The position numbers and the translations under genes are program-made. Below, one piece after another: positions 1 to 56,084 of a DNA stretch of 64,000 bases. Under the pieces are notes generated by a model. It did no database searches. It saw only the letters and a program-made list of their open reading frames with translations, and had not been told where the DNA came from. The stretch comes from Catajapyx aquilonaris (taxonomy: Eukaryota), in NCBI GenBank assembly GCA_000934665.2, contig KZ538266.1, positions 1 through 64,000 on the forward strand. Direction: 5' to 3'. Every line of letters begins with the position of its first letter. The first letter of the stretch is position 1.

Positions 1-136
1 CCACCCCTCTCCACCCCCCCCTCTTCGCTGCTCCTCTAACACCTCTGAAGAAGTGTTGGGGAAACTGCGAAGGAACAGTCGCCATCTTGGCCAGAGATGT
101 CGGCTGCAAATTTTTTTTCTCTCAGACCACAATCGA

Positions 137-1820: not shown

Positions 1821-3004
1821 TAAGGGAAACCTAAAAAAAGGACCTCACGGCAAGTAATAGTTAGAACGTTTGTCTTCATTTGAATAGGATTAGTGAAAAT
1901 CAAATCAAATCGGAAAAATTACTCTTATAATTTCGAAAGTGATAAACGTGTAGCCTACAGTTTTAAGGCACAGCATATGAAATGAATCACTCTCTCATTT
2001 GAATATAGCTGAATGTGCTTTTTTATGACCCATTTACCCAATAACCGTATTACTACACACATGTTTTTACTGCGCATGCTGCACGGATTATGCCACATAA
2101 CAATGAAACATGTCAGGCAGGTACTTTCCGGGATTTTTTTTTTTTGAAATTAGCAAACCACGGCACCGTAAAAAAATACATTTAATTCCGCGAACCTGCG
2201 CACATGCTGTTGAGTAGGTAAGGTCACAGAAGAAAAACGCGTGAAACACGCTCAGGAAAAAAATAACATCACCTGACTAATAAAAAAGCAACCAACGCGC
2301 TTCGCAATCCATAACGAAAGCTGAAACGATGCGACCTTGAGTTTTTCCCTGAGTGACCTTACAAACACACACACCTTATCAGAGCATGCGCTACGCGGAT
2401 TATACCTTACATCACACTTCTTCCGGCTGAAATTATGCTGGGACAATAACAATATCCTAAAAATACGGATCCAAGGGCTGAATGCACACAAAACAAGGTG
2501 TGGTTGTTGGATCGGGGTAGGATTTCGCAACATTATTTAACTTTCAAATTTTAAATTGTAAAATAGTCGTACACTTAATTTTTTTCTAACACTGACATCC
2601 CCTAATTTTGCGTTCATAAAATATTGCGTTCATCCGCCAGCGACATGCGTAAAAAATTCGAGTGATTAGCACAGGGCTCCCGTCAGGCGTAGGCAGCAAT
2701 AAATACCGTATCAAGGGCGTTTAAGTCCACTTAAGACGCCTTGATTAGTCTGGAATGACACAAGGGAAGGTCCTTCCTTGATGTAATTGATATCCCATGA
2801 CGCAACCGGGTACAAATTAAACGGGGGGACATACCGCAATATCCATCATCCCAATTCCGCAACTGGAAATCCTTACCCCCCACCCTATGTCAAGGCATGT
2901 AACAAAAAAAACCCGGGGCAGATACAACAGACAAGTGCGGAGTGCCTTTATTATTAGCCTGGCTTGCCAATATGGATGACAATAGAGACAAAGGCAATGG
3001 GGGT

Positions 3005-3164
3005 GAGATGAGTCCGCCCCCGCGTTGATGATGACTGTACTCAAATCAGAAGTAATGATGAGGACCGGCCTTGGTCGGTCTTTTGGGAGATGGTCGGAGC
3101 CACCTGACCAATCAAAGAAAGCGGCCTATATAACACCCCCCCAGCGTGTAAGACGACACTTGAA
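3005..3164. repeat. 160-bp non-coding block, copy 1 (159/160 identical to 6859-7018), with CCAAT and TATATAA on the + strand
   Basis: Direct comparison from GAGATGAGTCC to GACACTTGAA shows one mismatch. The block lies about 600 bp beyond the stop codon of paralog 1. Confidence 0.95.
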
Positions 3165-3756
3165 CTGCTGGATAAACCCATCTACGTGCCACACATCAAA
3201 TGGAAATAATTATTCGACAATCACATAACCGTGGGGGTCAAGAGTGGGGGCCATATTCACAGGAAAAGGAGGGCAGATTTTGACTATTTAAAGTTGAGTG
3301 CACGAAAATGTGTTACACACACGCATGTATTAACTCGTAAAATTAATTAGATGCGTCTGAAGTCTGGTATTTTGTTGTCAAAATGGTGTGAACTTATCTG
3401 TCTATAAAATCGTACTTTAGGGTGTAAATGACTGTGAGGGTGTCGTAAAACTTACACGCTGGTATAATTACGACGTAGCAATTTTCTTCAATGCTGCTGT
3501 ACAGCGCATGCGGAAGAACTTATTCACAAAAGTCGGCAGGAAGCGCGCGCCTTTTTTTTCTTCTTTTATATAGTTTTTTTTTCATGGGGCTCCTATAAAT
3601 GCGTGCTCACATGTCATTATGGGAAGGGAGGGGACAACAAGTGCTACTTACGTAGAAATTGAAGGGGGGGGGGGTAGAAAGAGGGATAATGCACGCACAC
3701 ACTGGTACCAAGATGCGTGATAAAGTCGGAATAAGATAACATTCCTAAGCACGTTC

Positions 3757-5502
3757 TTAGAAGTAGCCTCGACCCAAAAGGACTGCTGCTGGGAGGAGAA
3801 GGAGTCCTACGAAGATGGACGGACTCGATGCCCCGCTGCAGCCGTAGTCCTACAAACAAAATGACGAATTATTAGAAAAGAAAACCCCCATTGTTACCTC
3901 AGGGAAATAATGTTATTTTTAGCCAAGGTCAGCCGTGAAGACGTGCAGGCAAAACTAGTGCGCAATTGTGCAAATTGGGATGACAACCATGTGAATATTT
4001 GGTCATAGTTTGTAACAATGCAAAAGACTCACATAGAAGTTCTTCCTGGCCTGTTTGACCTGATCCCACATCAGGTCCTTTTGGCTGTAAGGAGAGTTGT
4101 CGTACTGTTCCTGCGCGCACTCGATGTCTGCTCCGTACGCCCTATGGGGACAAAATAAGGTCAAATTTGTGGCCCTCGGATTTGACCTCGTCACCTCAAT
4201 TCCCTGTACACTACCTGCATGTGATCTCTCGCTGCCTGTAGTGGGATCCTTCCATTCTGGCCTCGGTCCTGTAGTTTTGGGCCTGCCTGCAGATGTCTGT
4301 CAGGTAGTTTTGGGCCATCACGCAGCTCACTGCAACTGGATGGAAAAGTACAGGGTGATTGAAAACCGATTTTGGTGTCTGACAAACTCGCTTTTTTATA
4401 TAAAACGCTGTTTAATTCCTAATTGAGGTGCTAACAAATCGAGCAAACCGAATTGTTACCTTCCGCGAAATGCTCGCCATTAAATTTTAACTACCGATAT
4501 TTCAAGTGTTGCGAGTTGTGACAATAACTTTCACACACAATTTTAGAGTTTATCATATAACGCCCTATAGTTATGAATTTTTAAGAGATTGTGTTACCAC
4601 CCTATGTGAATGACAGTATTAAATTGTTTATAGCTCTATTTTTCTCCATTGAAACTAAGAATAGTTCCAATAAAAAGTGTACAAATACCTCAATGTCGCC
4701 ATAAAATTCGACAACAAATTGATTCTTCTTCAAGGGCATCCCCATAATTATTCCTGATCGCACTGGAATGTCCTACAGTCGTGTACATATAGGAGGTGAC
4801 TCAAACGAGCGGATGTGAAGCTAACAAGTGCGATACTGCGATGCAAAAAGCAGGAAATGTATACTGTCGAGAATAATCATATTACTTCCTAATTATTGTC
4901 ATAAATATTTTCAAACGCGCAATTTCAGCATCACATACGTGTTAACTCGGCGGTTGTACTCTGGTACAGACGTCACTGCATTTTATAAACTGCTAAAACT
5001 TGTGCAATGTAGCTCTCTGATCGAAGATCAGGTTTGCACATTGTTATCAAGTACCGATCACACTTCGGCTGTAATTTTTGATTGGACACCTGTCTGTACA
5101 TTAAAAAATTTGAATCGGTCAATACTACATGTACCTGTATGGAATGTCACCATTGGTATGTATGTCATGTGCGCCCTACGAAATCAATGCGACATGTGTG
5201 CAGGAAGGACGTACCATTAGGTTAATAACTCCTTGCTCAGCTCACCTTAAAGGCGAAGGTCATTACTATATGCGCGATATTTGCGCCTTGTACATATCGA
5301 TCGAAAATGTCGTCAAAAACAGCGAGCATTGTTCTTTCGAATCTTGTTGATAATGTACCTCGCGGGCAACACGTTTTCTCACCTGACCTACTTAGAGGTT
5401 ACGACGCACTTAAGTATTACGTTTCAACAACAAAAAAAAAGTGAAGGCGGGAAAGTAAGTACCTGCAAGCCCCACGAGAGCAACTGTCCAGAAGGTCCTC
5501 AT
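3757..5502 (-). CDS. Paralog 1: secreted, putatively GPI-anchored 4-Cys protein, 120 aa, 4 coding exons
   Basis: Exons 5502-5463, 4335-4215, 4141-4033, 3849-3757; all GT-AG; phases 1,2,0. Protein: MRTFWTVALVGLAVAVSCVMAQNYLTDICRQAQNYRTEARMEGSHYRQREITCRAYGADIECAQEQYDNSPYSQKDLMWDQVKQARKNFYDYGCSGASSPSIFVGLLLLPAAVLLGRGYF*. Confidence 0.9.
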
Positions 5503-6858
5503 TGTCCTAAGTTGTCGATGCGGTACCGGGTACGGACACTATAGACACTGCGGAGAGTGAGAAAAAGGCAGCTGTTACAAGCGTGAGACTCCGGTTGTGA
5601 CTGGTTGTGTGACGTGGTGGTGATTAAGAAGTTGTTAAGTCGTGGGTGTGGCGTGATTCAAAAACTTTCTCCCATCCCACCTAACATACTCACCAAAGAG
5701 AAGGAAAAAAAGGACCGGTCGCAATGGTCTCTGTTGGCAGTCTGCTCTACCAGTGGTTATTGCAATCGGGTCCTTTACACCCCCTTCCTTCCTTTCCCCC
5801 CCTACCTCTCTCTTTTCTCCACAACCCCTTTCCCCCTCCATGCCCCCCTCACATATTCCCTTACACATCGAGGGGCCTCCTTAGTTCCACATAACGTGAC
5901 GTAGGTAAAGAATGGGATGCGTGCCTGATCATCCCACGCAGCACGCAAGGACAATCAGCATCCAGCTACTTGCATTTTCTACACTAAACTTGGCAACACC
6001 GCACCGTGCGCATGGGCTGCAAGGAGGAAAAAAACTATTGAATGGAGATGCCAATATGGAAATTCTGTTATGACCCTCTCCAAGTTAGCATCGTACTAAC
6101 CAAACACCTGGCTGCCTGCTGTGAAAAACCTTGCAGTTGGCCCAATTGTTCGTTATTTTTTTTATATTTGTTTCCCTGTTTGCCGTATGGACGCGTTACA
6201 CTTCCTAAAATACGCAATTGTTGTGGAAGGTTACGGGTCGTAAACACTGGGCAAGGTCATGAGGGCCCCCCCATTTCGAACAGGTTCCACTCCAAGGGAT
6301 CGACCACCTGTTTATGCATGCGGGGGGGGTTATACAAAATGCTGCTTTTTTTATTTACTTGGAAGTGTCGGGTTGATCGACTGGCGTTTTGCGTATCTTC
6401 TACTGCTGAGGCGATATGGGCTTAAATAATTCAAAGCCATTGAAAGTGGCGGTCGATGGGAAAAGGAGCAAACATATTGTAAGGGAGCAGAACTTGGTGA
6501 TATTTTTCTAATGATATGACAAAAAATTACTGGTCGTAGCAGTTGGTACAAGATAATAAGGAAGGTGCCAGCAAAAGTCATAAAAACAGTAACAATCGCA
6601 TTTATTTTAAAAATTAGACATTGCGTCTGAAACATGCAACATAACGATTCAGTATGATCCAGTGGCAATGTTTCGTAATATTACAGCAACATTTTTTAAA
6701 GTGAATTAACGCATATCCTGAAAATAGCTTTCTGTTAATAATGAAAAAGATGGGTTGCATATAGAGGAATACTAGTTTTACAAGGTTTAATGTCGCTTTA
6801 CATGAAGTAAGAAATCACGGATGCCACTAGAGGCAAAGGCAATGAAGAGAGAGGAAGG

Positions 6859-7018
6859 GAGATGAGTCCACCCCCGCGTTGATGATGACTGTACTCAAAT
6901 CAGAAGTAATGATGAGGACCGGCCTTGGTCGGTCTTTTGGGAGATGGTCGGAGCCACCTGACCAATCAAAGAAAGCGGCCTATATAACACCCCCCCAGCG
7001 TGTAAGACGACACTTGAA
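6859..7018. repeat. 160-bp non-coding block, copy 2
   Basis: Near-identical to 3005-3164. It lies about 400 bp beyond the stop codon of paralog 2. Confidence 0.95.
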
Positions 7019-7409
7019 ATGGATAATCCCATTAGTGTGCTAAGTATAATTATTTGGTAATTTGTGTATTACGGTTATCATGAAGTAAACAGGGACTCTT
7101 TTTGGAAAGGAAATGGTCACCATACACAAATTAGATGGAATTCGCCAATCACAATGAAACAAACTCGACTCGGAGCGTAAACCGACGACACTGCAAGCTA
7201 CATTCACATAATATCGGAAGGAAACGGGCCATTTTTTATAGTTTGTTTACATGGAGCGCCTATAAATGCGTGTTCACATGTCATTACAGGATGGGAGGGG
7301 ACAGCTAGTGCTGCTTAGGTGGATATTTGGAAGGTGGAAAGAGGAGGACAATGCACGCACACATTGGTAATAATACAGTCGGAATGAGATAATATTCCGA
7401 CGCACGTGT

Positions 7410-8698
7410 TTAGAAGTAGTAACCTCGACCCAAAAGGACAGCTGCTGGGAGGAGAAGGAGTCCTGCAAAGAAGGACGAACTAGCAGCGGACGCTCTGTCA
7501 CATTCGGATCCCTGCAACAAAGCGATGGATGAGACAGAACCATTGTTGAAAAAAAAATATTACTTTTAGAGAGAGGTTTAGGACTAGGTCAGCCTGGGGG
7601 ATTGAGATTTTAGCGCGGAAACATTAGTGTGCAAATGAAGGTGGGTTCACATAGGCGTGGTTATCTTCGAATCGTTCATGAGGTTATACTTACAGCATAG
7701 TTCTTCTTGACATGTTGGAGTTGTAACTTCAACACGGGCTTCAGGTTTTCAGAAGCTGTATGCAATTCCTCCTGCACGCAGGTGACCTCTGCATTGAGCG
7801 CCCTGAAGACAAGCACAGGGTCAATATTGTAGGTCAATTCTACCTGATCTCATGATGACCTCTTTCCCAGCCCGTTGCGTACAGGCAGTTGTACTCATGC
7901 TTCCTTGCATTTGCGCCTTTGCTGTTAGACTCTTTTTCCATTTTTGCCAGGGTCCTGTATTCATCTGCCGGCCTGCAGTTGAGTGCACTGTAGTTCTCAG
8001 CCATCACGCAGTATGCTGGCATGAGATAACAATGTACAGCCGGTGAATTTCAAACCAGTTATGTTATCAAAAGTCAACAAATGATCTGTTAAAATGATGT
8101 GGGTTGACAGGTGGTTGGTTACATAAACATATACAATGTAATTACACACCAAATAATTCCCATTGTCAATGTACACATTTCCCTACGTCATCAACAATGA
8201 AAAGGAGCGCTGGTATTCGTCGATAGCTGACTGCAGCTGCGTAAGTGTGGCCTCATGTAGACAGTCTTATACTTATTACTCCTTGAAGGTTCAGCTATGC
8301 AGCAACTGGGCGCGATATCAGTGACCGTTTGCATAACAATAATGTCGCCAAAAACAGCACGCGCATTGTTCTTTCGAAATCTGTTGACAATAATAGATTC
8401 CATTCCAACAAGTTTTCTCTCCTGACCTACCAGGGTTGACTTAAATGAGAAAACAGTCTTTTCGTTACATAAATAAGTCCACAGAAAAATATTATTATTA
8501 TCCCGCTCAATGAATTTATTGTCGTTCTGATGGACGAATGAATGTGGCTTGTCCACATTTTTATACCATATCTGTTCATAGACTTGTCATGATGTCAGCA
8601 TACTGTACTGCTGACTGGTCGGGTTTTTTATTTTAATATTACCATTATAAGTGAGTACCTGCAAGTCCCGCAAGTGCAACTGTCCAGAAGGTCCTCAT
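7410..8698 (-). CDS. Paralog 2: secreted, putatively GPI-anchored 4-Cys protein, 127 aa (tandem duplicate of paralog 1)
   Basis: Exons 8698-8659, 8015-7883, 7802-7694, 7511-7410. Protein: MRTFWTVALAGLAAYCVMAENYSALNCRPADEYRTLAKMEKESNSKGANARKHEYNCLALNAEVTCVQEELHTASENLKPVLKLQLQHVKKNYAGSECDRASAASSSFFAGLLLLPAAVLLGRGYYF*. Confidence 0.88.
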
Positions 8699-11456
8699 TG
8701 TCCAAGCTGATGTATACGGTTCGGACACCACAAAAACAACACTGTAGATAAAAACCTGTTACAAGGTTCCATATGACTCGTGTTAGTGTGACGTGAAAAA
8801 GTTATTAAAGTCGTGGGGGTGTGATTTAAAAAAAATAACTGTTTCCCTTCCTCTAAACACACTCACCAAAAAGGCAAAGGACCGTCCGGAATGTCCACTG
8901 TGTTGGCGGTCTGCTCTCTTTAGAATAGATTATTACAATCGGGTCCTTTCTTTCTATGCCCACCTCTATCTCAACCAGCCCATATTTCCTCAGTTCCACA
9001 TTACATGACGTAGGTAAAGAATGTGCCTCATCATTCCAGCCATTGAGACTTGCATTTTTTTTTTACTTCATATTTTTATATAGGGAACATTGCCTCGTCG
9101 TTACTTCCTGAAAATATTCATCGTCGAGTCAAAAACAACCAAGAATTAATCGGGGTCAGCGTCTAATTGGATGGATGGCAGCATCTTGTTTCAATCATTC
9201 CGATGTTTGCCTCCCGTACCGTACAGACGCGTTACACTTCCGAAAACACGCACTTGTTGTCGAAGGTTACGGACGTCGTAAACACTATGCAAGGTCATGC
9301 TGAGGGGGCTCCCATTCGAACCGGTTCAACTTACTCTCTATTGGCCACCTGTTTACCGCGCATTGGATATACGTACTGTACACATAACCTAAGGTCATCA
9401 AAAGTTACTCAGCCGCAGTGACACTCTCGCTGGGATCGAAGCCCGTCGATTTGTTGCCAACCGATTTTGTCTGATTTCGCATTCTAGGAGCTTCGCTGCT
9501 GGACAAAGTGACAAATGATGTCAAGGCAACCAGGGTGATTTATTTCAACCGTCCTGTACACGGCTTTGAAGTAACTGTCATGTGTATAGGCTTGAGTAAT
9601 ACTTACGTACTATAGAGTGAATGGCTGGGTTAAAGTTGAAGGCCCTCTTACTTGACACTGACATTGGCGTTCCTGTCGGTCACGTGATGTAATCGACCAA
9701 TGATGAGTAACAACTACTTCAGGGAGGCCAAATATATGTTGCTTCATGCCTGTTTGGACACTCATCTTTTCTTACTCATCAGTCAGTCTTGTGTTAGCGG
9801 AAAACATTGCGGGGAAAAAGGAAAAGAAGATAATTATATGCATCACTAATCCTTATGAGACCGAGTTGAATTTCTAGCAGACTAATCGTGGGAAAAATTT
9901 TCTCCGCCCAATATGCCCTGAATGTTTCAATATTTTCTAACTGTAACATGAGAAATTTTCCTTGCTCAGTGTTGACACACTGTGAGCTTCAACAAACTGG
10001 CCCCCACAAAATATACATAGTGTTGTTTGGTTGCAACATTTCCTCCTGGTTAGTCAATCGTTTGCTAACTGCTAAAACTTAATCGCATTTTAATTCGCAC
10101 CGCCGCCCCCTCCGTATGATGAAAGCATGACCGATGCTGCAGAAGGGTATGTGGTTGTTTAATATTAAACACGCTAAGTACAAGTTCATATTCTAATCAT
10201 GTATATTGATGTGGGAGGTGGCCTTCGGATGCATCAGACATCGTAATTGGTACAGACGTCTTGTGCATTTGAAAGGAAGGGGGATGGGGGGTGGAGGGTA
10301 TGAGAAGAGTACTTATTAGAAAGTAATTAGGGATTTGTCCGGTACTTTCCTTACCATTTCCTACGTGCAATACTCGGTAAATTCTGCTTATTCCCAGGCA
10401 TTTCAGCCTTGGACTTCAGATAATAACGAGCCATAGTCATGCGGTCTGGTTATTTTTGTGTCACATTTTTCCCTTGCAAGAGTGTAATCGCATGAATCAC
10501 AAACGAGCTCGGCATTTCGTGGTAATCGCTATCAGCTTTAAGTATAGCGAAGGTTCAATTGATCAACGGACCAGTAGTCACTGGCTATGTACAGGATGTG
10601 TCACCCATTTGCCAATAAGTTTACGAGGTCATCTTTGGTAAATTTGGAAACAGCCTCGAGTGCGTTTGTGCAAGCTTATCTATCTCATGACTCTTGTGTA
10701 CATTACATGTTCATAAATACTTAACGTCATTTTAAGTACCGGTTTATGAGGACACAACCACTTATTCAAATTCCAAATATTTTCTGAACAATTTACAATG
10801 CAGTGTAATGAGTTGATTGCTTTTTTAATTTTTTTTAGAAAAGGGCACAAAATTCAATAAATTATTTAAGAGTGTGATAAAAACGCGGACTCGCCATCCT
10901 CTCTAGGGTAAAGTTTCCAAAATATCTTTTGAAATTTTCAAAAAATGCATAAAACCAGAGTTGGCCAGTTTTTTTGTGGAGTCACAAATCCTTTGGTGTT
11001 TGTGCAATATGCACAATCCCAATTCGCATGCATTTTATGCACCGTCTAAAACCGGTCTTACCTCCTAACGGTATACTTTTTGTACACACTTTTTTTGTCC
11101 CGAAAACGTCAATAAATGGCCCACCTCGACCTGTTTGCACAGAGTCACGACTATTTTGCATTACTCAGCCTCTCTCTCGATTCCTACAAGAACTTCCCGA
11201 CCTTCTTGAGCCCTCTTACGCAACCAAAGGGTGACGTAACCCTTGCTAAAAAAAAAAGGAAAGAAATACCTGAATGAGGCCCTCACGACCTTGAGCACTT
11301 TGACTCACTCGAACCCTTTGACAACATACTTATGCAAATCCTGTGCCACAAAATGTTGCAAACTCGTGGATAACGTACTCTCACTCTTTATTCAAAAATG
11401 CATGGCGAATTTACATGTTCGTTTAATAAAAAAAATATTGGGAAATTTTCAAAAAT

Positions 11457-26747: not shown

Positions 26748-28859
26748 TCAGAAGAGGGAAGGAGGGAGGAGGAGGAGGAGTGGGAGGAGGAGGAAGAACA
26801 AGGATCCGGCCGCAGGGGACGGGGAGGCGTCGTCGGGGGCGCCCGTCGTCGTCGACGTCGGAGGCGCCAGCAACCTCTGACAGTTAGCCGCCTGTAAACA
26901 CGACCGCACACGTCCCATTAACCTCGACTTGACCTCGATTACACCACAGAGTCGTGGCACAAATGCAGGGCATTATTGAACAGGAAGTTGACCACAAGTT
27001 TGGAAGTGGGAACCATTAAGGGGGGTGTGATCGATTTCAATTAGTCTTGCTTTCCAAAAGGAAGCCTTACTACTACTGCTCGCTAGAACATGGGGCTTCA
27101 GTGCTGTTGTTAAAGTGGCCAGATTCCAGTCACCACTCACCTCATACTCCTTCCTGAAATCTTTTATGGCGTTAGTGTAGTCATCAACGTGGGACCCTTT
27201 AGCATGCTCCTTCCTGAACTCACTGCAGTCCAGGGAAGCCTGCAACGCCCTGCAACCACAAGAGAACTCATGCACGTATATCTCATGTACTCTAATGCAC
27301 TTTCAATAAAACATACTGCCCTCTTCCCATGCATGATTGCCCAAAGAGTATGAGGAAAAAGAGTCAAACTGGAGGCTTGTATGCGTGTGACCATGAACCG
27401 TCATCATGCCACAGTGCATCAGTTGCAGTAAATGCATGATCTTTGCAATGTACTGTAATCAAAACCGTTTATCTTGTATAAACCGTCAATCACAGCTTTT
27501 TTCTCCCTCAAGGACAAACCGTGCTAATTATGTAGCCGACTAGTTGAGATTTATGCAAGGGCCTTTAATGGCTACGTCGATAAATACTGTATACATTTGG
27601 GAAATTAATAATCGACGCTGTTTGTTGCCACTTTGGTGAACGGGTCATGTACTTTCAGGTTGCCCCCGGAACTGTGGGCGGAATTTACCTACATAACCGA
27701 TCACCAATAAAATTGAGTGTTAGAAATACTCAGTGATGAAATGAAAGTATAGAGTGATGATATTGTTACAATTCAAAACTGGAAATAGCATATCTCAATA
27801 TTTGATTATACCGCACATATCCGGCGTAGCTTACATCTTTTCAAAGAAGAGGATTCAAGGTTTTTAACCCTGTAATGCCACTAATCTAAGTAATGCCCAC
27901 TGGGTCATATCTGGCACACCATTTAGTGCAATTTTTGCAACTTTTGCAATTTTTATATTTTCTGTAAGTGTGCCAAATTGCACTAAATGGTGTGCCAGAT
28001 ATGACCCAAGGGGCATTACAGGGTTAAATTCTTTGGGTAGGGCGACATATTTCTATGCACATGCTTGAACCGACAAAATCAACAACACAACATTTCCCTA
28101 TAAAAATTTATTACTTCATAAATCCATTTGGATCGTTGACTACCCCTCACAGGGAAATGTCGTGATGCTAATGATGATGACGACTTCATATAAATAAGTG
28201 TAAAACGTCATTATTTTAGTGTTATGACATAATAAGTAATAAATAACTGAATCGAGTGGATGTTGCAGTATTAGCAGCTACTATATATTTGAAACGCGTG
28301 ATTCAAGCAAATGCTTTAAAAATAATCGCCATATCAGGTAAGAAAATAGATGGACAGTAAAGCTTGGCTGAGTCATGGATTGCAAACTCTGAACACGCGA
28401 CTATTGTTTGTAATATTGCTACCAGCAAACAACAACAAGTATCAAGCACTTGTTACGAATTTACTATCGCTCACCCACACGCAGCATAATTAGAAACAGA
28501 TAAATAGTTGCAGCCAGCGAACACTCTTAGCTACTTCCGCTATCTATAACTGTGAAGTGACGTCAGCAGAAACCCGGCAGTTCAAATTAACTCCCCAGCG
28601 TCCTTCTCCAAACATTTTATTTGCAATCATTTTTACCTGCATAGTCCCACCTGGTGCTCCTCTGTTGCCTGTCCATTGGTCTTTGCCAGGAGGCTCTGCA
28701 GGAGCAACATGTCCCCACACGCTTTTGGGTCCTCATAGGCGTCTCCATTCGCAGACGCAACCGCTGGAGATGAGCCCAAATATCAAAAACAAATCAAACA
28801 TGACTCTCGAGTGTGCACATACCTGCCAGAAGTGAGGCCAGCACCAGAAACGCCTTCAT
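26748..28859 (-). CDS. Paralog 6: secreted, putatively GPI-anchored 4-Cys protein with P/T/S stalk, 138 aa
   Basis: Exons 28859-28823, 28763-28637, 27249-27141, 26891-26748. Protein: MKAFLVLASLLAAVASANGDAYEDPKACGDMLLLQSLLAKTNGQATEEHQVGLCRALQASLDCSEFRKEHAKGSHVDDYTNAIKDFRKEYEAANCQRLLAPPTSTTTGAPDDASPSPAAGSLFFLLLPLLLLLPPSLF*. Confidence 0.9.
27868..28023. mobile_element. piggyBac-type MITE (TTAA TSD, CCCT...AGGG ends) in intron 2 of paralog 6
   Basis: TTAA|CCCTGTAATGCC ... GGCATTACAGGG|TTAA, plus a subterminal inverted repeat of about 33 bp: GGGTCATATCTGGCACACCATTTAGTGCAATTT / AAATTGCACTAAATGGTGTGCCAGATATGACCC. Confidence 0.85.
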
Positions 28860-39686: not shown

Positions 39687-41069
39687 CTAGAGTGGTCCTC
39701 CTGGTCTAAGCTGGACCAGGACCACCATCACGGCCAAGAGATAGGGCGCCCCGAAGTCTATGGGTGGGCTCCCACACTTCTCCTGGAAAAAAGAGGCAAA
39801 CGGCCAGTATCAACTGAAAGGTTTCTTTCTTTTCAAAAACAGTGATAATGCTGATGTCGATGAAAAAAAAAAAGAGATTCATACAGATCCGTCTGTTCAC
39901 TTGTCGTGACTGTGTATTTGGTTTATGCAATTCTGCTCAATTTTTGGTACAACACTAGTTGGAAGAGCCCAACCCAAAAGTAAATTGTGTATCAACATGG
40001 AGGATTTACCACCAAGACAAGCGAACGAATCAATCCATCACATTTCCTTTTACTGTAATAGCGGAATCAATGGTTGAAGGAGACCTAAGAGAAGTTAATG
40101 ATGTAATCAGACTGAAATGCAGAATGAGGAAAGTCCCATTAAGAACGAAATTGATTACCGTATGTATTATTCAATCAGTCCTCAAAGCGAACGTTCTGAT
40201 GGTCATGCCATCTTTCTGAATGATCAATGACAGCACCTACATGCAAAAGTGTTGGGATAAACATGTTCCGCCACACCGGGCAATTCAATCTTCAAACTGC
40301 TATCCTATTCATATCTCCGAATTATATAGTCGAAATTACGTGTGTGTCTTTGAAGAACCACTCGTACTCCCTCGGAATCTTCTTCTTTTCGGGGGTGGCG
40401 TCGGGCAGTGCTTTTTCCATACACTTCACGTAGAAGTCCTGAGCTCTGGAAAAAAGAAATATAATTTCAGTTGTCAGGATTAATCTGAGCGTGATTAATC
40501 TGAGGCACGAGAACATAATGAACGATATGTACTGGATAAGTGATGGAAATATTTTTCTTAAGAGATTAGGCTACTAGAAATCTTACTGGCATGTGATATG
40601 TTCAACCCATCCTGGTGGCTCATTCGAAAAATTTCTGCTCGTTATTGGCTGACAATGTTACCATTCCAGCCCAGCATTTGCATGTAGTAATCGGATTTTA
40701 GGTTGACTAGCAGCCAGACATGACATGATGATTATATTCAACAGTAACCTACTTACGTTCATTTCTCTTACCTGCAGATAAGTCTGTCCTTGTCTTCTTC
40801 TGTGCGAGCAGAGATGGCCGCATACACGTCTTCGCTCAGCTCAAGCATGCAGTCAGCCAGATAAACGAACTGAGCACTTGTCACTTCTACTCCTGCTATA
40901 TGAAATTATTTCATCAGTGGAAAAAAGGCAACATATCCAACACCGTACAGCACACTGCAGTTATCTCAATTACTACTCGAGTTCAGTTGGAACACCCTGT
41001 ATATGAAAGGGGCATGTGGACAAGCGACTCACCAACAATGAGAACGACGCACAAGACTAGGACCTTCAT
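39687..41069 (-). CDS. Paralog 9: secreted, putatively GPI-anchored 4-Cys protein, 119 aa
   Basis: Exons 41069-41033, 40892-40772, 40445-40340, 39782-39687. Protein: MKVLVLCVVLIVGVEVTSAQFVYLADCMLELSEDVYAAISARTEEDKDRLICRAQDFYVKCMEKALPDATPEKKKIPREYEWFFKDTHEKCGSPPIDFGAPYLLAVMVVLVQLRPGGPL*. Confidence 0.87.
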
Positions 41070-43275: not shown

Positions 43276-46200
43276 CTAGAATGGTCCTCCTGGTCCGCGT
43301 TGGCCCAGAGCCACCACCACCGCCAGCAAGAATGCCAGCAGGTAGGGCGCCCCTACGCCTATCGGCGAGCTCCCACACTTCTCCTGTGGAAAAAAACAAC
43401 AATCGTCATAATCCTACTTCTATAGCACAGTCAGTGGCCAGAAGAAATCTTTGCAAATATTATTGCACGCTTACGTTTCTGTCTTTGATGAAACGTTCAT
43501 ACTGCTGCTGCGTCCTGTCCTTCATATCGCTGGTGGCGTCGGGCAGTACTCGCTCCACACACTTCACGTGGGCCTCATGAGCTCTGCAACAATTAAGCAA
43601 CAATGTGAACTTGGAGCTAACAATTTCATGATTTCCAAAGAAACAAAAAAAACAGTCATGAAACATGGTCCTGATAGTAATGAAAAATCCATAATGCACA
43701 ATTTTCTTCTGTAGAAATTGAGGATCAACTCGAATCCATAGAAATATCTACATGTTATATTATAAAGCAGAAAGTTTGTTGGTATGGATGCAGATTTTTT
43801 GTTCCAATTTGTGTTCATCCAACCGAGCATAAGTGAGAGTTTGCGAATTAGCTTCCTGCAACATCCCCCAATATTGGTTTGGCCCCCGTCAAGTGATGCG
43901 CACTTGGGAGGTTGCGAATAAGCTCGATAGATCGCAAAGGAATATTCGCGAGGCCCGAGTCGCAACCACATCTGGCGGCCACTAGACGAACGAAAAGCCA
44001 AGTCGCATAATATATTTTGCACGCGGAACATTCCCGACAGCCTGCAACGGTTCACATCCTGGATTTTCTGCAGGACTTTAACCCGGGCAGCGAAGAATAT
44101 AAACTTTTGAGCCCAACTTTTGCGACCAATTTTCCGTTATTTACATCGTTTTTTTTAAAGTTCGACATGCTGCATCTACTGAACCAAATAGCTCCATTAC
44201 GTTAAGAACTTTTTAGGAAGCCTTTTAGCAGATTGGGACTTAATAAATGGCGCACTATTGGCTGATCTGCTCATAACACACCCTAAACCTGGCCTAAACT
44301 ACTCAATTACGTCAGAAAAGCCCTGCAAATACTGAAATATTGCGGCTGTTTACATATACCCTCTGCACTCTGTACAGACATGCGTGACCTATTTCTGCCA
44401 AGTAATCAATATACGATGCCGCATTTAATTGAATAATTTGCTAATTTAATTTCTCTCTGCAGAACTATTTTTGCCCCAACTCTTTCCCTAAACTGTCGTG
44501 GAATTTTGTAGAAAAATTAATCAATTTGCAATAATTTGCAGATTTTTTGATGATACAGGCTGCAATATATTTTGATGACTTTATTTATAATCGAGCTAAA
44601 TGATGTGCATTTTTTTGATCAGTTGCTATATAGTGTGCAACAATTTAAGGACACGAGAAAAAAATGCGCAATTACCAATATTGATAGAGAGAGTATAGCC
44701 TAATATTTTGCAAGCTGGGGAAGGTATTTACCTAGTATTTTTTCACACCTACGGCAAGCTCAAATTTCACAACTGGGTTAATAACTAAGAGCTCTCAAGC
44801 TAATAAAGCGTATGGTGCTGCAGCCGACACCCCTTGTTTGGTTGAGTATGGCCAAAAAAATCGATTCTCTTGAGACCACGCCGGGCACGCTCAGCTATAG
44901 ACGCTTCCCATAGCAATTCTGCTCACATAGTCTCTACCAGGGTGGGGTCAATATCTGCCTTTTTGTTTCCTGGTCTCCAAGCTGCCTCTTTTGTTAGTCC
45001 GCAAAAACATATAGGTTGTAAACTGCGGAGTTTAAAAAAAACTTGATTTCTGTTCTTACGTGTAGCTCTGATTTTGCATAGGAATAATGGACATTTCAAG
45101 GCGCATTTTGCATTTCAGATGACCGCAGGGACTCTGTACGGGTACACCGCATGTACTCAGTGAGCTGCATGCAAACTTTACGAGGCTCCGACCACACTGA
45201 CACGCCCAGTGCCTCCCACTAAAAATTGGGTAAAAGTTACGTCCCTGCCAGCTTTTTTTTAACGTTAAAGTTTATCGGACGTTGCTGTCAACATTGTAAT
45301 CCCAGAGGTGTGCCGTTCATGGCGAGGTCGCAGTGTAATCAACCTTTACTCAAGCCCTGGTGGCCGAGAGAGCTCCACCTTCCACTTTTTATATATACTG
45401 TAGTATAAATTTATCCGTGTCAGGCACAATATAGAGCAGCGTGATCCTGTTAATTTAGATGCGACTTTATATGCGGTGATGTCCAATTAGCTATCAAACA
45501 GACCTTGACAGTTCCATTTTTAGTGTACATGTTTGTGCTAGCTCCTGATTATAGTATCATATCTGATATTAATAACACACCGTTGCACTATAGTCAAAGG
45601 CTTTTATTCCGTGGATGGCCTTTTATTTGCAGGCTAACTGACCTACTGGTGCAGCGTTTCCGCACTGTAAATGCCGATGTGGAAATGTCAAATAATGTGG
45701 CCGAGGTCCCATAATTCGAGTCAATTTTTCAGGAGAAGGAAATGAAATTTCCTGTTTACCCGATACACGGGCTCAATCCATACTTATTTGTGCACAAGGT
45801 AATACAGAAATAGTCCTGTGCCTGTCATACCCAGGACGGAAAGGCTTCATTTGTAAAACACAAGCTGAGCCGAGTATTTGTGCCAAAATAATGTAAAACC
45901 TCGTGTAGTTCCAGTCTCTGATTAAAACCCCAACTTGCATTACATTCAAAACTGCATTTAACATATTTTTTTCACAGGTTTCTCAATTATAAATGAGACC
46001 TTACAGACCGGTGACCAGACGTGTAACCTTGTTCTTGACCACTATAGGATGAATATTATACCAAAGGGATGAATAATGTATCTCTACAGTGCAATTGAAA
46101 GGAGATATGCAATAATGATTCAACCCGCTTGAGAACAGTTTTGAGAAGAAGGGCTTTGCATGTCACATCTGTGAAATTAAATTCGGTGTCCTTTTCTGTC

Positions 46201-52485: not shown

Positions 52486-54215
52486 TTACGACGAACCGGA
52501 GACCATTCCCAGGAGAGGCTTCAGAAGGAGCGACAGAAGCACCACTATAGCCCACGATGACCTCTGACACGCTGAGCCGCATTCAGCCTACATATAAAAA
52601 ATGCTTATTAAAATTTTACATAACACTACTTGGTGGCTCTAACCACACTATAAAATATAAGTATCTAAACTCTAGATCTCAGAAGTTCTCTTGTTACACG
52701 CATGACATTGCTCATTGCGCAATGTTACGTGCTGCGTGTATCGCTCTACAGAAGCGTGCTTCATCAGCTTGGTTGCTACTTATGAAAGTAATCCTCGTGC
52801 AGCTCTGGACGACCAGTGATTTCCTCACCATGTAAGCATTTCGGGCATCTTTGACCTTGAGTTCGACGCAAGGCTTGAGATCAGGACAGGGCCTGAGTTC
52901 CTCGCAGGCCCTGTGGTCCACGCAAGGCTCCTTCTCGTCGCAGTACTTCTCTCCGAAAGTGCAGTACTTCTGTCTCCTGGTGCACTCCTTCCAGACCTCG
53001 CACCAGTTCCTCCTCTGAAGACACTTGTCCCTGTAAGAGCATCTCTTCCTCAGCTCCACGCAGTTCTTTGGGTCTGAGCATCTCTGCCGCTTCTCCTGGC
53101 ACTCCTCAAGATCCTTATCGGTGTTGGCAGACACTCGGATCAGGCAGTCCAGCTGGACTCGCTGGGTTCTATGAAAACGAAGGGCGCAATTAAATAACTA
53201 TATGAAGGTTGTATCGAGCGTGTATGACCTCCGTGTTCATGATGTCGCGTGCTTGACGCCAGAACACACACGCAGCCAACGCAGCAGTCCAAACTTCTAG
53301 TCCTTGGAACAACCTTACCCTTAGGATTTCCCAGTCGCAATTATTATGATTCAACCAAAGTATGGATCTGACACGGAGCAGCGTACTTTTTGACGAGGAT
53401 GATAGTTGAAAGGGGAGACAATTGCCGAAGAAGTACAAACTACAGTAGCCTACTATTCGTGGAATTTATATTGTTTCAACCAGTATAATTACCACTCGAT
53501 TTTAATGCCAACTTTCGGTTGGAAAAACTTTATAAGCCATACTTTTTTATTTGCTATAGCCTACACACTGGAAAATCCACACTAAAAGTGTTCAGAAACT
53601 TGTAGACGAGATATTCCTATGATAATCAAAGACTGGGATTCGCTCAGAAGGCCTTGTGATACACTTGAATGGGGAATTTGAGAATTCAGGAACTTGCAGA
53701 TTAAAAGCGAGGCATAAAGAGAACGGAAAATGTTGCAATAGTATGAAACTTTGAAAGAAGAGTGGGAAGCGGTTGGAAGAACTTGAAGAAAGCAAACTTG
53801 TTGTTGATCCCGCAGGAGACAGTTTTATATAGTAAAATTGATTTCTTGTTATGGAGCCCTTTTTTTCATTTTAGCATATAATTTTGTTGACAGTTGAAAA
53901 AGATTTTGAGCGACCCTTCGAGCACAGCATTTTAGGCGAAGGCAACAAACAGTCTTACTCTTCTATATATCTAAAGAACTCATTATGAGTGAAATTGACA
54001 GAAGCTAATGACGCATAAAAACGCACTCTCCCTTACACGCATTCGAAGTCGTGCTTTTCGTGCTCGTCCTTGATGGAGGCCAGCTTGTCGTGCTGTTCTT
54101 TGTAGAGGTCGAAGCACTCGAAGACATTCTTCTGCGCCATGGCCACCTTATGGCTCCATTTCAGCGCCAGGCTCACCAGCACCAGAAGGCACCAGCAGCT
54201 GTGAGGAACTCCCAT
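52486..54215 (-). CDS. Paralog 11 (3-exon subfamily): putatively GPI-anchored protein with a 13-Cys ladder insert, 206 aa
   Basis: Exons 54215-54037, 53168-52829, 52587-52486. Protein: MGVPHSCWCLLVLVSLALKWSHKVAMAQKNVFECFDLYKEQHDKLASIKDEHEKHDFECVTQRVQLDCLIRVSANTDKDLEECQEKRQRCSDPKNCVELRKRCSYRDKCLQRRNWCEVWKECTRRQKYCTFGEKYCDEKEPCVDHRACEELRPCPDLKPCVELKVKDARNAYMAECGSACQRSSWAIVVLLSLLLKPLLGMVSGSS*. Confidence 0.9.
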
Positions 54216-55316: not shown

Positions 55317-56084
55317 CTACGACGGTGTAAGCATGTGTCCCAATGAAACAGGCAGGATCAGCCCCACGACCACCAGCAGTGACCACGGTGACCTCCTGCA
55401 CGCCTCACACTCCGCCTGCACAAAAGATGTGTTGGAAATTATTTGGAAGAAAACAAAAATCTAGTATAAGAATATGCAAAAGATAAGTCACCAAGTAGAT
55501 CTTCTTGGCCTCTGTGACTTTGATCTTGATGCAGGGGCCCAGTTTGTCGCAAGGCCTGAGCTCGTTGCACTCTATCCTGTTGATGCACTGTTGCTTGTTG
55601 TAGCACTCCTGGTCGTGTCCGCATCTCCTCTGCCTCCGGATGCAGGCCTTACGGTCAGCGCACCTCTTCTTCAGCTCCTGACATCCCTTCGGGTCGGCAC
55701 ACACTTGACGTCGAACACGACATTCCTCCAGTTCCTTTCCGGAGTTCACCAGAACCCGATTCAGGCACTCCAGCTGGACCTTCTGGGCTCTGAAAGTATC
55801 GGGAAGAACATGAGCACTGTTAGTAGACTCATTATTTGGTTTTTTAACAAATGAATGGTGTTACTACCCATTTGGATGCAATTCTTGGGTCAAATATTTT
55901 CAAGCACAAAAAATTCTTACTCGCAGTCATAAGTGCGCTGCTCGTTCTTGTCCTTAACTGAAGCCAATTTCTGGTGCTGTTCGTTATACAGGTTGAAGCA
56001 CTCGATGACGTCCCTTTGCGCCATCACATTCTGGCGCCATAATAAGAGAAGGACCAGCAGCCCCAGCACCACATCAGTCCTCAT
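55317..56084 (-). CDS. Paralog 12 (3-exon subfamily): putatively GPI-anchored protein with an 11-Cys ladder insert, 186 aa
   Basis: Exons 56084-55921, 55789-55492, 55415-55317. Protein: MRTDVVLGLLVLLLLWRQNVMAQRDVIECFNLYNEQHQKLASVKDKNEQRTYDCEAQKVQLECLNRVLVNSGKELEECRVRRQVCADPKGCQELKKRCADRKACIRRQRRCGHDQECYNKQQCINRIECNELRPCDKLGPCIKIKVTEAKKIYLAECEACRRSPWSLLVVVGLILPVSLGHMLTPS*. Confidence 0.9.

Follow-up and report, generated by a model that had tools for sequence, protein, structure and literature searches.

A tandem pair of genes for small, probably surface-anchored proteins with conserved ends and a strongly diverged core

Conotoxins, defensins and amphibian skin peptides are secreted-peptide families that combine a conserved signal region with a hypervariable mature region. 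In Trypanosoma cruzi, MASP proteins and mucins have conserved signal-peptide and GPI-signal ends around a variable centre, and the Ly6/uPAR proteins are three-finger GPI-anchored proteins encoded in tandem clusters, with an LU domain of 8-10 Cys and a beta fold. Conserved signals and hypervariable mature regions have likewise been described for the secreted Mytilus CRP-I family (PMC10138031). A different route to such a pattern is the "peak of divergence" that can arise between duplicated genes under conversion, as set out in the Teshima-Innan model and for the human red/green opsins (PMC3924837), and a similar case is that of the Tigriopus GOT1 paralogues (PMC3728101).

The pair compared here with these systems, G1 and G2, lies in a 64-kb stretch of Catajapyx aquilonaris DNA (contig KZ538266.1, positions 1 to 64,000; hereafter the window), where at least 8 genes of this kind are clustered, every one of them read from the minus strand. 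Both are tandem paralogues with four coding exons (Table 1), and their products have 120 aa (G1) and 127 aa (G2). The models, derived from sequence, place the coding regions at 3757-5502 for G1 and 7410-8698 for G2, and all coding introns are of the GT..AG type, in phases 1/2/0. The limits of the region treated in a preliminary description of this DNA, 3757 and 8698, coincide with the stop codon of G1 and the ATG of G2, respectively.

Table 1. Coordinates of the features of the G1 and G2 units in the window
Feature	Position	Strand	Remarks
G1 signal-peptide exon, 40 nt, ATG at 5502, phase 1 donor	5463-5502	minus	36/40 nt identical to G2 exon
G1 exon 2, first half of mature domain, 3 Cys (2 family-invariant)	4215-4335	minus	canonical AG/GT; no X5 joint listed for flanking introns
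G1 exon 3, 109 nt, predicted helical hairpin, one invariant Cys	4033-4141	minus	donor confirmed by X5 joint 3848>4032
G1 exon 4: Cys, small residues, hydrophobic C-terminal tail (putative GPI-type signal), stop codon	3757-3849	minus	X5 joint
G1 3'UTR, at least this far	3400-3756	minus	781-nt X5 contig covers 3400-3848, continues further
Block inside G1 3'UTR	3564-3756		about 79-81% identical to 7232-7409
148-nt stretch, core of repeat D2 (3005-3167 = 6859-7021)	3017-3164	no strand	identical to 6871-7018
Conserved 5' block of G1	5878-5936	minus	upstream HSP, 80% identical to 8987-9038
Conserved upstream (promoter-side) block of G1	6183-6291	minus	upstream HSP (repeat D9), 83% identical to 9219-9331
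G2-side copy of 148-nt repeat, in or just past G2 3'UTR	6871-7018	no strand	X5 contig covers 6989-7320
G2 exon 4: Cys, small residues, hydrophobic tail, stop codon	7410-7511	minus	X5
G2 exon 3, 109 nt	7694-7802	minus	X5 joints 7510>7693, 7801>7882
G2 exon 2, 133 nt, 6-codon insertion relative to G1	7883-8015	minus	X5 joints
G2 exon: 43 nt of 5'UTR + signal peptide (ATG at 8698)	8659-8741	minus	X5 joints 8015>8659, 8741>8867
G2 signal-peptide coding part	8659-8698	minus	
G2 5'UTR intron, 125 nt	8742-8866	minus	X5 joint
Conserved upstream block of G2	9219-9331	minus	

Both genes are intact, and their expression is evident from spliced RNA contigs. Specifically, contigs of run X5, a second sample and study distinct from the DNA runs, join five splice junctions, namely those of G2 introns 1-3, the G2 5'UTR intron and G1 intron 3; the basis for G1 introns 1 and 2 is canonical splice sites and homology to G2 only. 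The GT and AG sites of the G2 5'UTR intron are conserved at aligned places in G1. It is extremely improbable that the pair carries no real signal and that its pattern stems instead from misassembly, from the decay of one copy into a pseudogene or from unrelated exons lodged between shared repeats. Such an origin could draw on the missing joints of G1 introns 1-2 and on the DNA runs, which are perhaps the source of the assembly, so that their agreement with it would not be independent, but a 3227-nt DNA contig (3674-6900) runs from unit 1 into the beginning of unit 2, and the X5 contigs are spliced at the five junctions that the models predict. A decaying pseudogene copy was rejected because both frames are open and all Cys are kept, whereas in 20,000 neutral simulations of equal divergence an open frame and all 4 Cys survived in a proportion of only 0.0005; the scaffold of frame and Cys is under selection. 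Swapped or non-homologous exons were rejected because exons 2 and 3 align as nucleotides (z against shuffles of 13 and 10) and because 21 of 34 exon-3 third positions are identical, compared with 6-17 of 34 in 26 non-sister paralogue pairs and a chance level of about 0.28-0.30. Since third positions thus lie above the non-sister range and exon-3 protein identity (9/34 aa) lies inside it (2-10/34), the exon-3 cores are, as judged from sequence comparison, true sisters whose protein has decayed to the family background.

The layout of the products suggests a small protein at the cell surface. In the translation, Met-Arg is followed by about 12 hydrophobic residues on an exon of their own, a putative cleavable signal peptide, and the C-terminus, read by eye, consists of small residues, a short spacer, a hydrophobic stretch of about 15 residues with an internal Pro and 4-5 residues to the stop. 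Four more paralogue models, complete or partial, show the same C-terminal pattern by eye; the tail would be a GPI-type signal, with a short tail anchor as the alternative, and the product is probably a lipid-anchored surface protein rather than a released peptide. Exons 2 and 3 and the beginning of exon 4 between them carry four family-conserved Cys. The model of exon 3 is a helical hairpin of two helices (pLDDT 92.9); that of exon 2 is likewise helical, though with low confidence (pLDDT 51). Structure prediction points to a small, probably helical ectodomain that the four Cys would hold together, and the fold of the whole protein is our inference. When the exon peptides of G1 and G2 were searched exon by exon against Pfam, 0 of 6 reached the curated cut-off, and the cluster is a lineage-specific family without known relatives.

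Like Ly6/uPAR genes, G1 and G2 are small, clustered paralogues with a signal exon, mature exons, a putative GPI-tail exon and a 5'UTR intron. Membership of that family was nevertheless rejected, given that no UPAR_LY6 match was obtained in the exon-wise Pfam search, that 4-5 Cys are present instead of 8-10, and that exon 3 is predicted to be helical, not beta. MASP proteins and mucins resemble G1 and G2 in that targeting signals at both termini, together with UTR-side sequence, are conserved around a variable centre in a multigene cluster, but the genes described here have spliceosomal introns and one module per exon, and the likeness is one of layout.

Alignment of the two units bears out most of what the preliminary description had reported from the sequence. 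The signal exon is identical at 36 of 40 nt and 12 of 13 aa, the tail motif is the same in both copies and exon 3 retains 9 of 36 identical residues, all as stated there. A 6-residue indel does separate two family-invariant Cys of exon 2, although to call these Cys1 and Cys2 is correct only if an extra Cys, which each gene has ahead of them, is left uncounted. Upstream and 3' non-coding DNA was said to align still, and its matches indeed exceed shuffled controls with z = 23 to 97. Besides the upstream matches in Table 1, these comprise 5453-5776 against 8649-8949 (69% over 340 columns) on the upstream side, and 3564-3825 against 7232-7481 (79%) and 2974-3181 against 6819-7032 (90% by blastn, 196/205 by global alignment) on the 3' side. 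Aligned identities amount to 269/324 in the 5' flank, 146/181 in the first 200 nt downstream of the stop and 196/205 in the far 3' block. A sliding-window identity plot gave the same peaks and a trough of 55-63% over exons 2-3 and introns 2-3. Gaps occupy 1012 of the 3441 columns of the unit alignment, and the coding indels are all multiples of three.

The inference that the mature domain diverges faster than non-coding DNA was sustained only in part. Exon 3 has a nucleotide identity of 57-60%, versus 78-96% in the promoter/UTR blocks, and relative to the aligned blocks the claim is correct; these blocks, however, are UTR and promoter sequence, much of it transcribed, and not neutral: silent sites (core pS 0.41) and introns 2-3 have diverged 2-3 times more. 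Introns 2 and 3 match the exons in divergence and are barely alignable (z 1.4 and 3.7). Flanks that are more conserved than an exon should therefore not be taken as a signature of selection when the flanks are UTRs or promoters and the adjoining introns are equally diverged. The 5' region consists of 40-80 nt blocks of about 90% identity with indels between them, and the distal UTR exon is identical at 135/173 positions, compared with 74/121 in the 5'UTR intron. On sequence grounds, this 5' similarity looks like regulatory footprints, not like a conversion tract.

The 3' side presents a different picture. The perfect run of 148 nt shared by the two units compares with a longest run of 41 in 2000 alignment permutations and of 69 in 2000 simulations at 83% identity, and recent gene conversion is the probable cause of the uniformity of the 3' end (tail codons, 3'UTR and the 148-nt run). 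In the DNA runs the element has a copy number of about two (X1 contig depth 41, versus 25-28 in neighbouring contigs), and it is transcribed: a 486-nt X5 contig covers the 3017-3164 copy, and its loose end matches 2965-2994. Instead of a conversion tract, the run could be an ultraconserved functional RNA. Across the 64-kb window, no Rfam hit reached gathering level; sub-threshold C/D-box snoRNA hits inside the run, on the plus strand, reached 17.1 and 16.4 bits (gathering scores 40 and 38), and no terminal stem of such a snoRNA was seen by eye in the element. On the grounds of score and stem, the C/D-box snoRNA was rejected.

Conversion alone, that is, an old pair whose core is under ordinary purifying selection and whose ends have been re-homogenised by tracts, would account for the length of the perfect run, far above the permutation and simulation maxima, and for the tail dS of 0.14 against a core dS of 0.59, a difference that does not reach significance (p = 0.06), nor does the silent contrast of signal and tail together with the core (p = 0.11). 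It would also fit introns 2-3 and most of intron 1, which are diverged like silent sites, so that the central 1.6 kb looks older than the ends, and a peak of divergence is a known model for paralogues under conversion (PMC3924837). We nevertheless consider conversion alone quite unlikely: dN/dS (w) is not well below 1 in the core (0.88, and 1.33 in exon 3) and dS is unsaturated, the 5' similarity is patchy, in short blocks between indels and with the UTR exon more conserved than the UTR intron, and the signal-exon dS of 0.44 is similar to that of the core. The opsin case described there resembles G1 and G2 in being a tandem pair with low flank divergence, high central divergence and a conversion-like tract, here the 148-nt run. 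Flanks below neutral divergence (blocks 81-96% identical, against the silent-site pS of 0.41) and an identity tract longer than chance were both found here, although an ultraconserved element would look alike. In the opsins, according to the same source, the introns adjoining the divergent exon are homogenised, whereas introns 2-3 of G1 and G2 are diverged like silent sites and the diverged island of about 1.6 kb includes introns; the footprint-like 5' similarity is a further difference. No orthologues that might reveal concerted evolution were found.

The reading we prefer, with a rough probability of 0.5, is that of an old duplicate pair in which constraint acts on the Cys scaffold and leaves the surface almost free to change, while constraint together with some conversion keeps the ends alike. 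The pair would be old at neutral sites: each silent site has taken about 0.5-0.7 substitutions, and introns 2-3 can hardly be aligned. Constraint on the ectodomain would be limited to the open frame, the splice sites, the Cys and a few positions, and the remaining residues would evolve about as fast as silent sites (w near 1), reflecting weak surface constraint and possibly some adaptive change. The signal peptide and tail would be held as targeting signals by purifying selection, the 5' blocks would be short promoter and UTR footprints, and the similarity of the 3' end would probably stem from recent gene conversion. We infer this split of the end similarity between constraint and conversion, which only an outgroup could separate.

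By the Nei-Gojobori method, in a single pairwise comparison of 36-76 codons with wide intervals, exon 3 has a dS of 0.50 and a dN of 0.66 (w 1.33, bootstrap 95% 0.40-3.97, Fisher p 0.81) and exons 2+3 a dS of 0.59 and a dN of 0.52 (w 0.88, 95% 0.44-1.76), while w is 0.60 in exon 2 and 0.21 in signal plus tail. Nonsynonymous differences set the ends apart from the core (p = 1e-7), and silent sites of the core are unsaturated, with dS of 0.50-0.68. A core dN/dS well below 1 with saturated dS, which the preliminary description had named as pointing to gene conversion rather than fast evolution, was thus not what the per-exon estimates gave.

That description had proposed diversifying positive selection on an exposed mature domain, as in toxins, immune receptors and gamete-recognition proteins, with purifying selection on signal, tail and flanks. 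We regard this as possible but doubtful. The core does diverge near the silent rate with unsaturated dS, yet no estimate of w differs from 1, and positive selection in the core is not proven. In its favour, dN exceeds dS in exon 3 by Nei-Gojobori and by maximum likelihood (1.09 vs 0.23), w is above 1 in 71% of exon-3 bootstraps, and the exon-3 protein stands at the family background while its silent sites are still sister-like. Furthermore, the average of exons 2+3 remains at 0.88 even though it includes constrained Cys, frame and N-terminal motif, so that the remaining sites average about 1 or more. Against it, the exon-3 test is far from significant with an interval that extends down to 0.40, w in exon 2 is 0.60, and a weakly constrained helical surface gives the same numbers. 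Introns 2-3 have diverged as far as the exons, so the contrast with the flanks requires more than protein-level selection. In addition, 0 of the 22 listed differences among three runs from two samples fall inside coding sequence, and the X5 transcript contig of G2 has 0 other letters across its listed pieces; the contigs of the two samples show no sign of allelic hypervariability, though contigs drop rare variants.

A stronger version, in which the helical-hairpin exon would be a recognition surface under recurrent positive selection, its copies kept different against ongoing conversion that homogenises targeting signals and UTRs, in an undescribed lineage-specific family of GPI-anchored, disulphide-stapled helical proteins, is unlikely. 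If true, the locus would serve recognition or defence in self/non-self, gamete or pathogen interaction and would represent a new structural type. If orthologues showed positive selection in the core, the cluster would offer a compact new example of exon-level modular evolution, with signal, variable ectodomain and anchor on separate exons, and, were such selection real, a family that is unannotated in its organism would become a candidate for recognition or defence. As it stands, the locus shows a well-known pattern, in which small secreted or surface proteins evolve fast and keep their targeting signals, together with a conversion-like tract, in a family without known relatives. With the secreted-peptide families it shares a near-identical signal exon (36/40 nt), a mature exon of 25% identity, tandem duplicates and one exon per module; it differs from them in the conserved GPI-type tail, in four conserved Cys in a helical domain, and in that w > 1 is not demonstrated.

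An independent tandem pair of the family, G41069/G44k, behaves in a similar way. Only exons 3 and 4 align between its members and flank similarity is gone; third-position identity in exon 3 is likewise 21/34, with a w of 1.16 for that exon and of 0.33 for exon 4. The exon-3 value, about 1.2, is similar to that of G1 and G2 and fits the preferred reading as well as diversifying selection.

The stretch in question extends from the stop codon of one gene, G1, to the ATG of its neighbour, G2, both on the minus strand, in DNA that is eukaryotic and carries spliceosomal introns. All introns of these two four-exon paralogues are bounded by GT..AG and fall in phases 1, 2 and 0. Contigs of sequencing run X5, which comes from a separate sample and study and is not listed as RNA, yet is spliced, skip G2 introns 1 to 3 exactly and also lack G1 intron 3 and a 125-nt intron of the G2 5' UTR. 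On the 3' side of G1, these contigs run from the stop codon past 3400 into a repeat at 3005-3167, where the loose end of one contig matches 2965-2994. G1 and G2 are therefore transcribed genes, spliced as modelled (G1 introns 1 and 2 have no joint among those listed).

Both products begin with a short hydrophobic N-terminus encoded by its own exon, continue with a mature part from exons 2 and 3, and end in exon 4 with a cysteine and small residues followed by a hydrophobic tail. This architecture is read as a signal peptide, an ectodomain and a GPI-type signal, the last of which we infer. With an alignment of eight paralogues as input, exon 3 is predicted to form a helical hairpin (pLDDT 92.9); the helical prediction for exon 2 is unreliable (pLDDT 51) and was left unused. 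None of eight peptides (six G1/G2 exon peptides and two neighbouring ORFs) reached the curated Pfam cut-off. The homologue search with G2 exon 2 returned no candidate, a weak negative in that the queries for these genes were exon pieces of 36-43 aa rather than spliced proteins.

The preliminary description held that the two genes share conserved ends and flanks around a diverged mature exon, and this observation is confirmed. The signal exons agree at 36/40 nt and 12/13 aa, the tail motif is the same, exon 3 retains 9/36 identical residues, and the upstream and 3' non-coding alignments were recovered where they had been placed; the conserved segments score z = 23-97 over shuffles. A sliding identity plot of the two duplication units in 60-column windows, as had been suggested, peaks at the ends and has its trough over exons 2-3 and introns 2-3. 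We give very little credence to an artefact.

Nei-Gojobori rates between G1 and G2 by region, with bootstrap 95% limits
Region	Codons	dS	dN	dN/dS	Bootstrap 95%
Exon 2	40	0.68	0.41	0.60	0.26-1.37
Exon 3	36	0.50	0.66	1.33	0.40-3.97
Exons 2+3	76	0.59	0.52	0.88	0.44-1.76
Signal + tail	29	0.24	0.05	0.21	not above 1.09
Tail alone	17	0.14	0.06	0.42	not above 1.71

These estimates indicate that silent sites in the core (exons 2-3) are unsaturated and that the ratio does not fall far below 1. Saturated dS with a ratio well below 1, which the preliminary description had named as the outcome contradicting it, is not what exons 2 and 3 present (dS 0.59, dN/dS 0.88). For exon 3, a maximum-likelihood estimate (Biopython) gives dN 1.09 and dS 0.23, and Fisher's test gives p = 0.81. 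The diversifying selection proposed earlier is compatible with unsaturated silent sites and a ratio of this size, but no region of the G1/G2 comparison has a ratio significantly above 1; real positive selection on the core is a tentative alternative, and the earlier interpretation is supported in part only.

Third positions of exon 3 are identical between G1 and G2 at 21/34 sites, compared with 6-17/34 in 26 non-sister pairs, whereas amino acid identity (9/34) lies within the non-sister range of 2-10/34. The two exons are true sisters, but their protein has eroded to the background level of identity in the family. A swapped or non-homologous exon 3 is ruled out by the nucleotide alignment (z = 10) and by the third positions that mark the sisters. 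Pseudogene decay is likewise ruled out: under random substitution to the observed divergence, the frame and all four cysteines survive in 0.0005 of 20,000 trials, and the coding indels comprise whole codons without exception. Given a constrained scaffold within a mean ratio of 0.88, the ratio at the remaining sites has to be about 1 or higher on average. The reading we prefer, at roughly even odds (about 0.5), is of a core whose surface is under weak constraint on a scaffold that is itself constrained, and of ends that stay alike through constraint and some gene conversion.

The non-coding flanks are unsuitable as neutral yardsticks for this pair. The true ones are the silent sites of G1 and G2 (pS 0.41) and their introns 2 and 3, which align poorly (z = 1.4 and z = 3.7). 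Since neutral sites have diverged, and a second, independent tandem pair of family genes (one at 41069, the other near 43.5 kb) lacks any flank match at similar silent divergence, the likeness of the G1/G2 ends needs a cause. The 5' similarity is patchy, with 40-80 nt blocks of about 90% identity separated by indel-rich DNA. Identity reaches 135/173 positions in the distal UTR exon against 74/121 in the UTR intron, and signal-exon dS is 0.44. In our reading, promoter, UTR and signal-peptide elements are under purifying selection here. On the 3' side, the tail dS of 0.14, a proximal 3' UTR that is 79-81% identical and a perfect 148-nt run point to recent gene conversion. Conversion alone could leave tandem paralogues with conserved flanks and a divergent centre, the 'peak of divergence' described in PMC3924837. 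G1 and G2 resemble that case in their like flanks and diverged centre, but differ from it in that the introns within their divergent island have also diverged; conversion as the sole cause is improbable.

The longest identical run expected by chance was 41 nt in 2000 permutations and 69 nt in 2000 simulations at 83% identity. The 148-nt element lies in the 3' regions of both genes and is transcribed in X5 contigs; a conversion tract and an ultraconserved RNA element would be indistinguishable here. A high-copy mobile element is rejected, since the window contains the 148-nt element only twice and DNA contigs cover it at about twofold depth. Folding it gives z = -0.56 for the minus strand and z = -2.42 for the plus, which is not compelling, and across the whole window Rfam gave no match at gathering level. 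The plus strand bears C/D-box-like motifs and a CCAAT-plus-TATA-like stretch; a C/D-box snoRNA there reaches 17 bits where the gathering scores are 38-40, and was not accepted as evidence.

Over 6001 nt, three runs from two samples list 14 substitutions and 8 indels, none within the 747 nt of coding sequence. There is thus no hint of allelic hypervariability in the G1/G2 coding sequence, and this evidence is weak because contigs drop rare variants. Ten substitutions and two indels cluster in the G2 3' UTR in minority contigs at about one third depth, which suggests a second haplotype.

The two genes belong to a wider family. When the window was scanned for hydrophobic mini-exons that open with Met-Arg/Lys and run up to a GT, 12 minus-strand start sites and one on the plus strand emerged; one of the 12, at 8366, falls within G2 intron 1. 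At least six more small genes of four-exon layout form a minus-strand tandem cluster. All family models share intron phases 1/2/0 and a hydrophobic C-terminal tail, with exon 3 measuring 106-115 nt (six of eight have 109 nt), two invariant cysteines in exon 2, one at exon 3 position 8 and one close to the start of exon 4; G1 and G2 have an extra cysteine near the signal cleavage region. An exon-3 HMM of these two genes detected no further significant exon among 2810 six-frame fragments (next E = 1.5). Membership therefore rests on phases, exon-3 length, cysteine positions and tails, and kinship beyond G1/G2 on shared layout rather than sequence statistics, the genes being too diverged. In the second pair only exons 3 and 4 align, and neither a signal exon nor an exon 2 was located for the copy near 43 kb. 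Its exon-3 third positions are identical at 21/34 sites, equal to G1/G2, with dN/dS of about 1.16 in exon 3 and about 0.33 in exon 4. That the hairpin exon changes at a near-neutral rate is a trait of the family.

A conserved signal combined with a hypervariable mature exon is typical of many secreted-peptide families, such as conotoxins and defensins. G1 and G2 share this layout with them and with Mytilus CRP-I, which PMC10138031 presents as such a family. With Ly6/uPAR they have the exon logic and the putative anchor in common, but cysteine number and modelled fold differ. We place the pair in a known kind, small surface or secreted proteins that are specific to a lineage and evolve fast.

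Coordinates of genes, aligned segments and other features in the window
Feature	Position	Strand	Remark
G1 CDS exons	5502-5463, 4335-4215, 4141-4033, 3849-3757	minus	120 aa
G2 CDS exons	8698-8659, 8015-7883, 7802-7694, 7511-7410	minus	127 aa
G2 5' UTR intron	8742-8866	minus	spliced out in X5
Sliding plot, G1 coordinates	6245-6187		52/58 identical
Sliding plot	5' UTR region		37-41 of 52-54 identical
Sliding plot	tail exon		54/57 identical
Sliding plot, G1 coordinates	3637-3577		48/55 identical
Sliding plot, G1 coordinates	3157-3037		60/60, 60/60 identical
Sliding plot trough	exons 2-3, introns 2-3		55-63% identity
Perfect 148-nt run	3164-3017 = 7018-6871
G2 3' UTR variant cluster	7140-7388		7321-7388 in all three runs; 7140-7209 in two DNA runs only
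Tandem cluster	11457-44000	minus
Complete four-exon models, starts	13454, 28859, 41069	minus	exon chaining, frame reading
Partial family models	24057, 31038, about 43.3-43.6 kb	minus	exon chaining, frame reading
Cluster signal exons	13454, 19733, 24057, 28859, 31038, 35231, 41069	minus
Cluster final exons, near	11457, 15391, 21590, 26748, 30015, 39687, 43279	minus
Second pair	39687-41069, about 43279-43583	minus
Inverted repeat	27890-28019		45-nt arms, 96% complementary, 40 nt spacing
Cys/Lys/Arg/Glu-rich ORFs	52715-53197, 55408-55860	minus	about 150-160 aa
126-nt repeat	54030, 55914, 59856, 62354		four copies, 67-72% identity
tRNA-like segments	340-420, 150-200	minus	by eye

The inverted repeat sits in the long intron of the gene starting at 28859 and could be a hairpin or small foldback element. 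The Cys/Lys/Arg/Glu-rich ORFs form a family unlike G1/G2, accompanied by a 126-nt repeat; no Pfam family scored above cut-off for them, and the 161-aa member at 52715-53197 had no homologue at E <= 0.01 and no usable Atlas match. ARAGORN calls no tRNA gene in the window; by eye, two segments have a tRNA-derived look and may represent a tRNA-derived short repeat.
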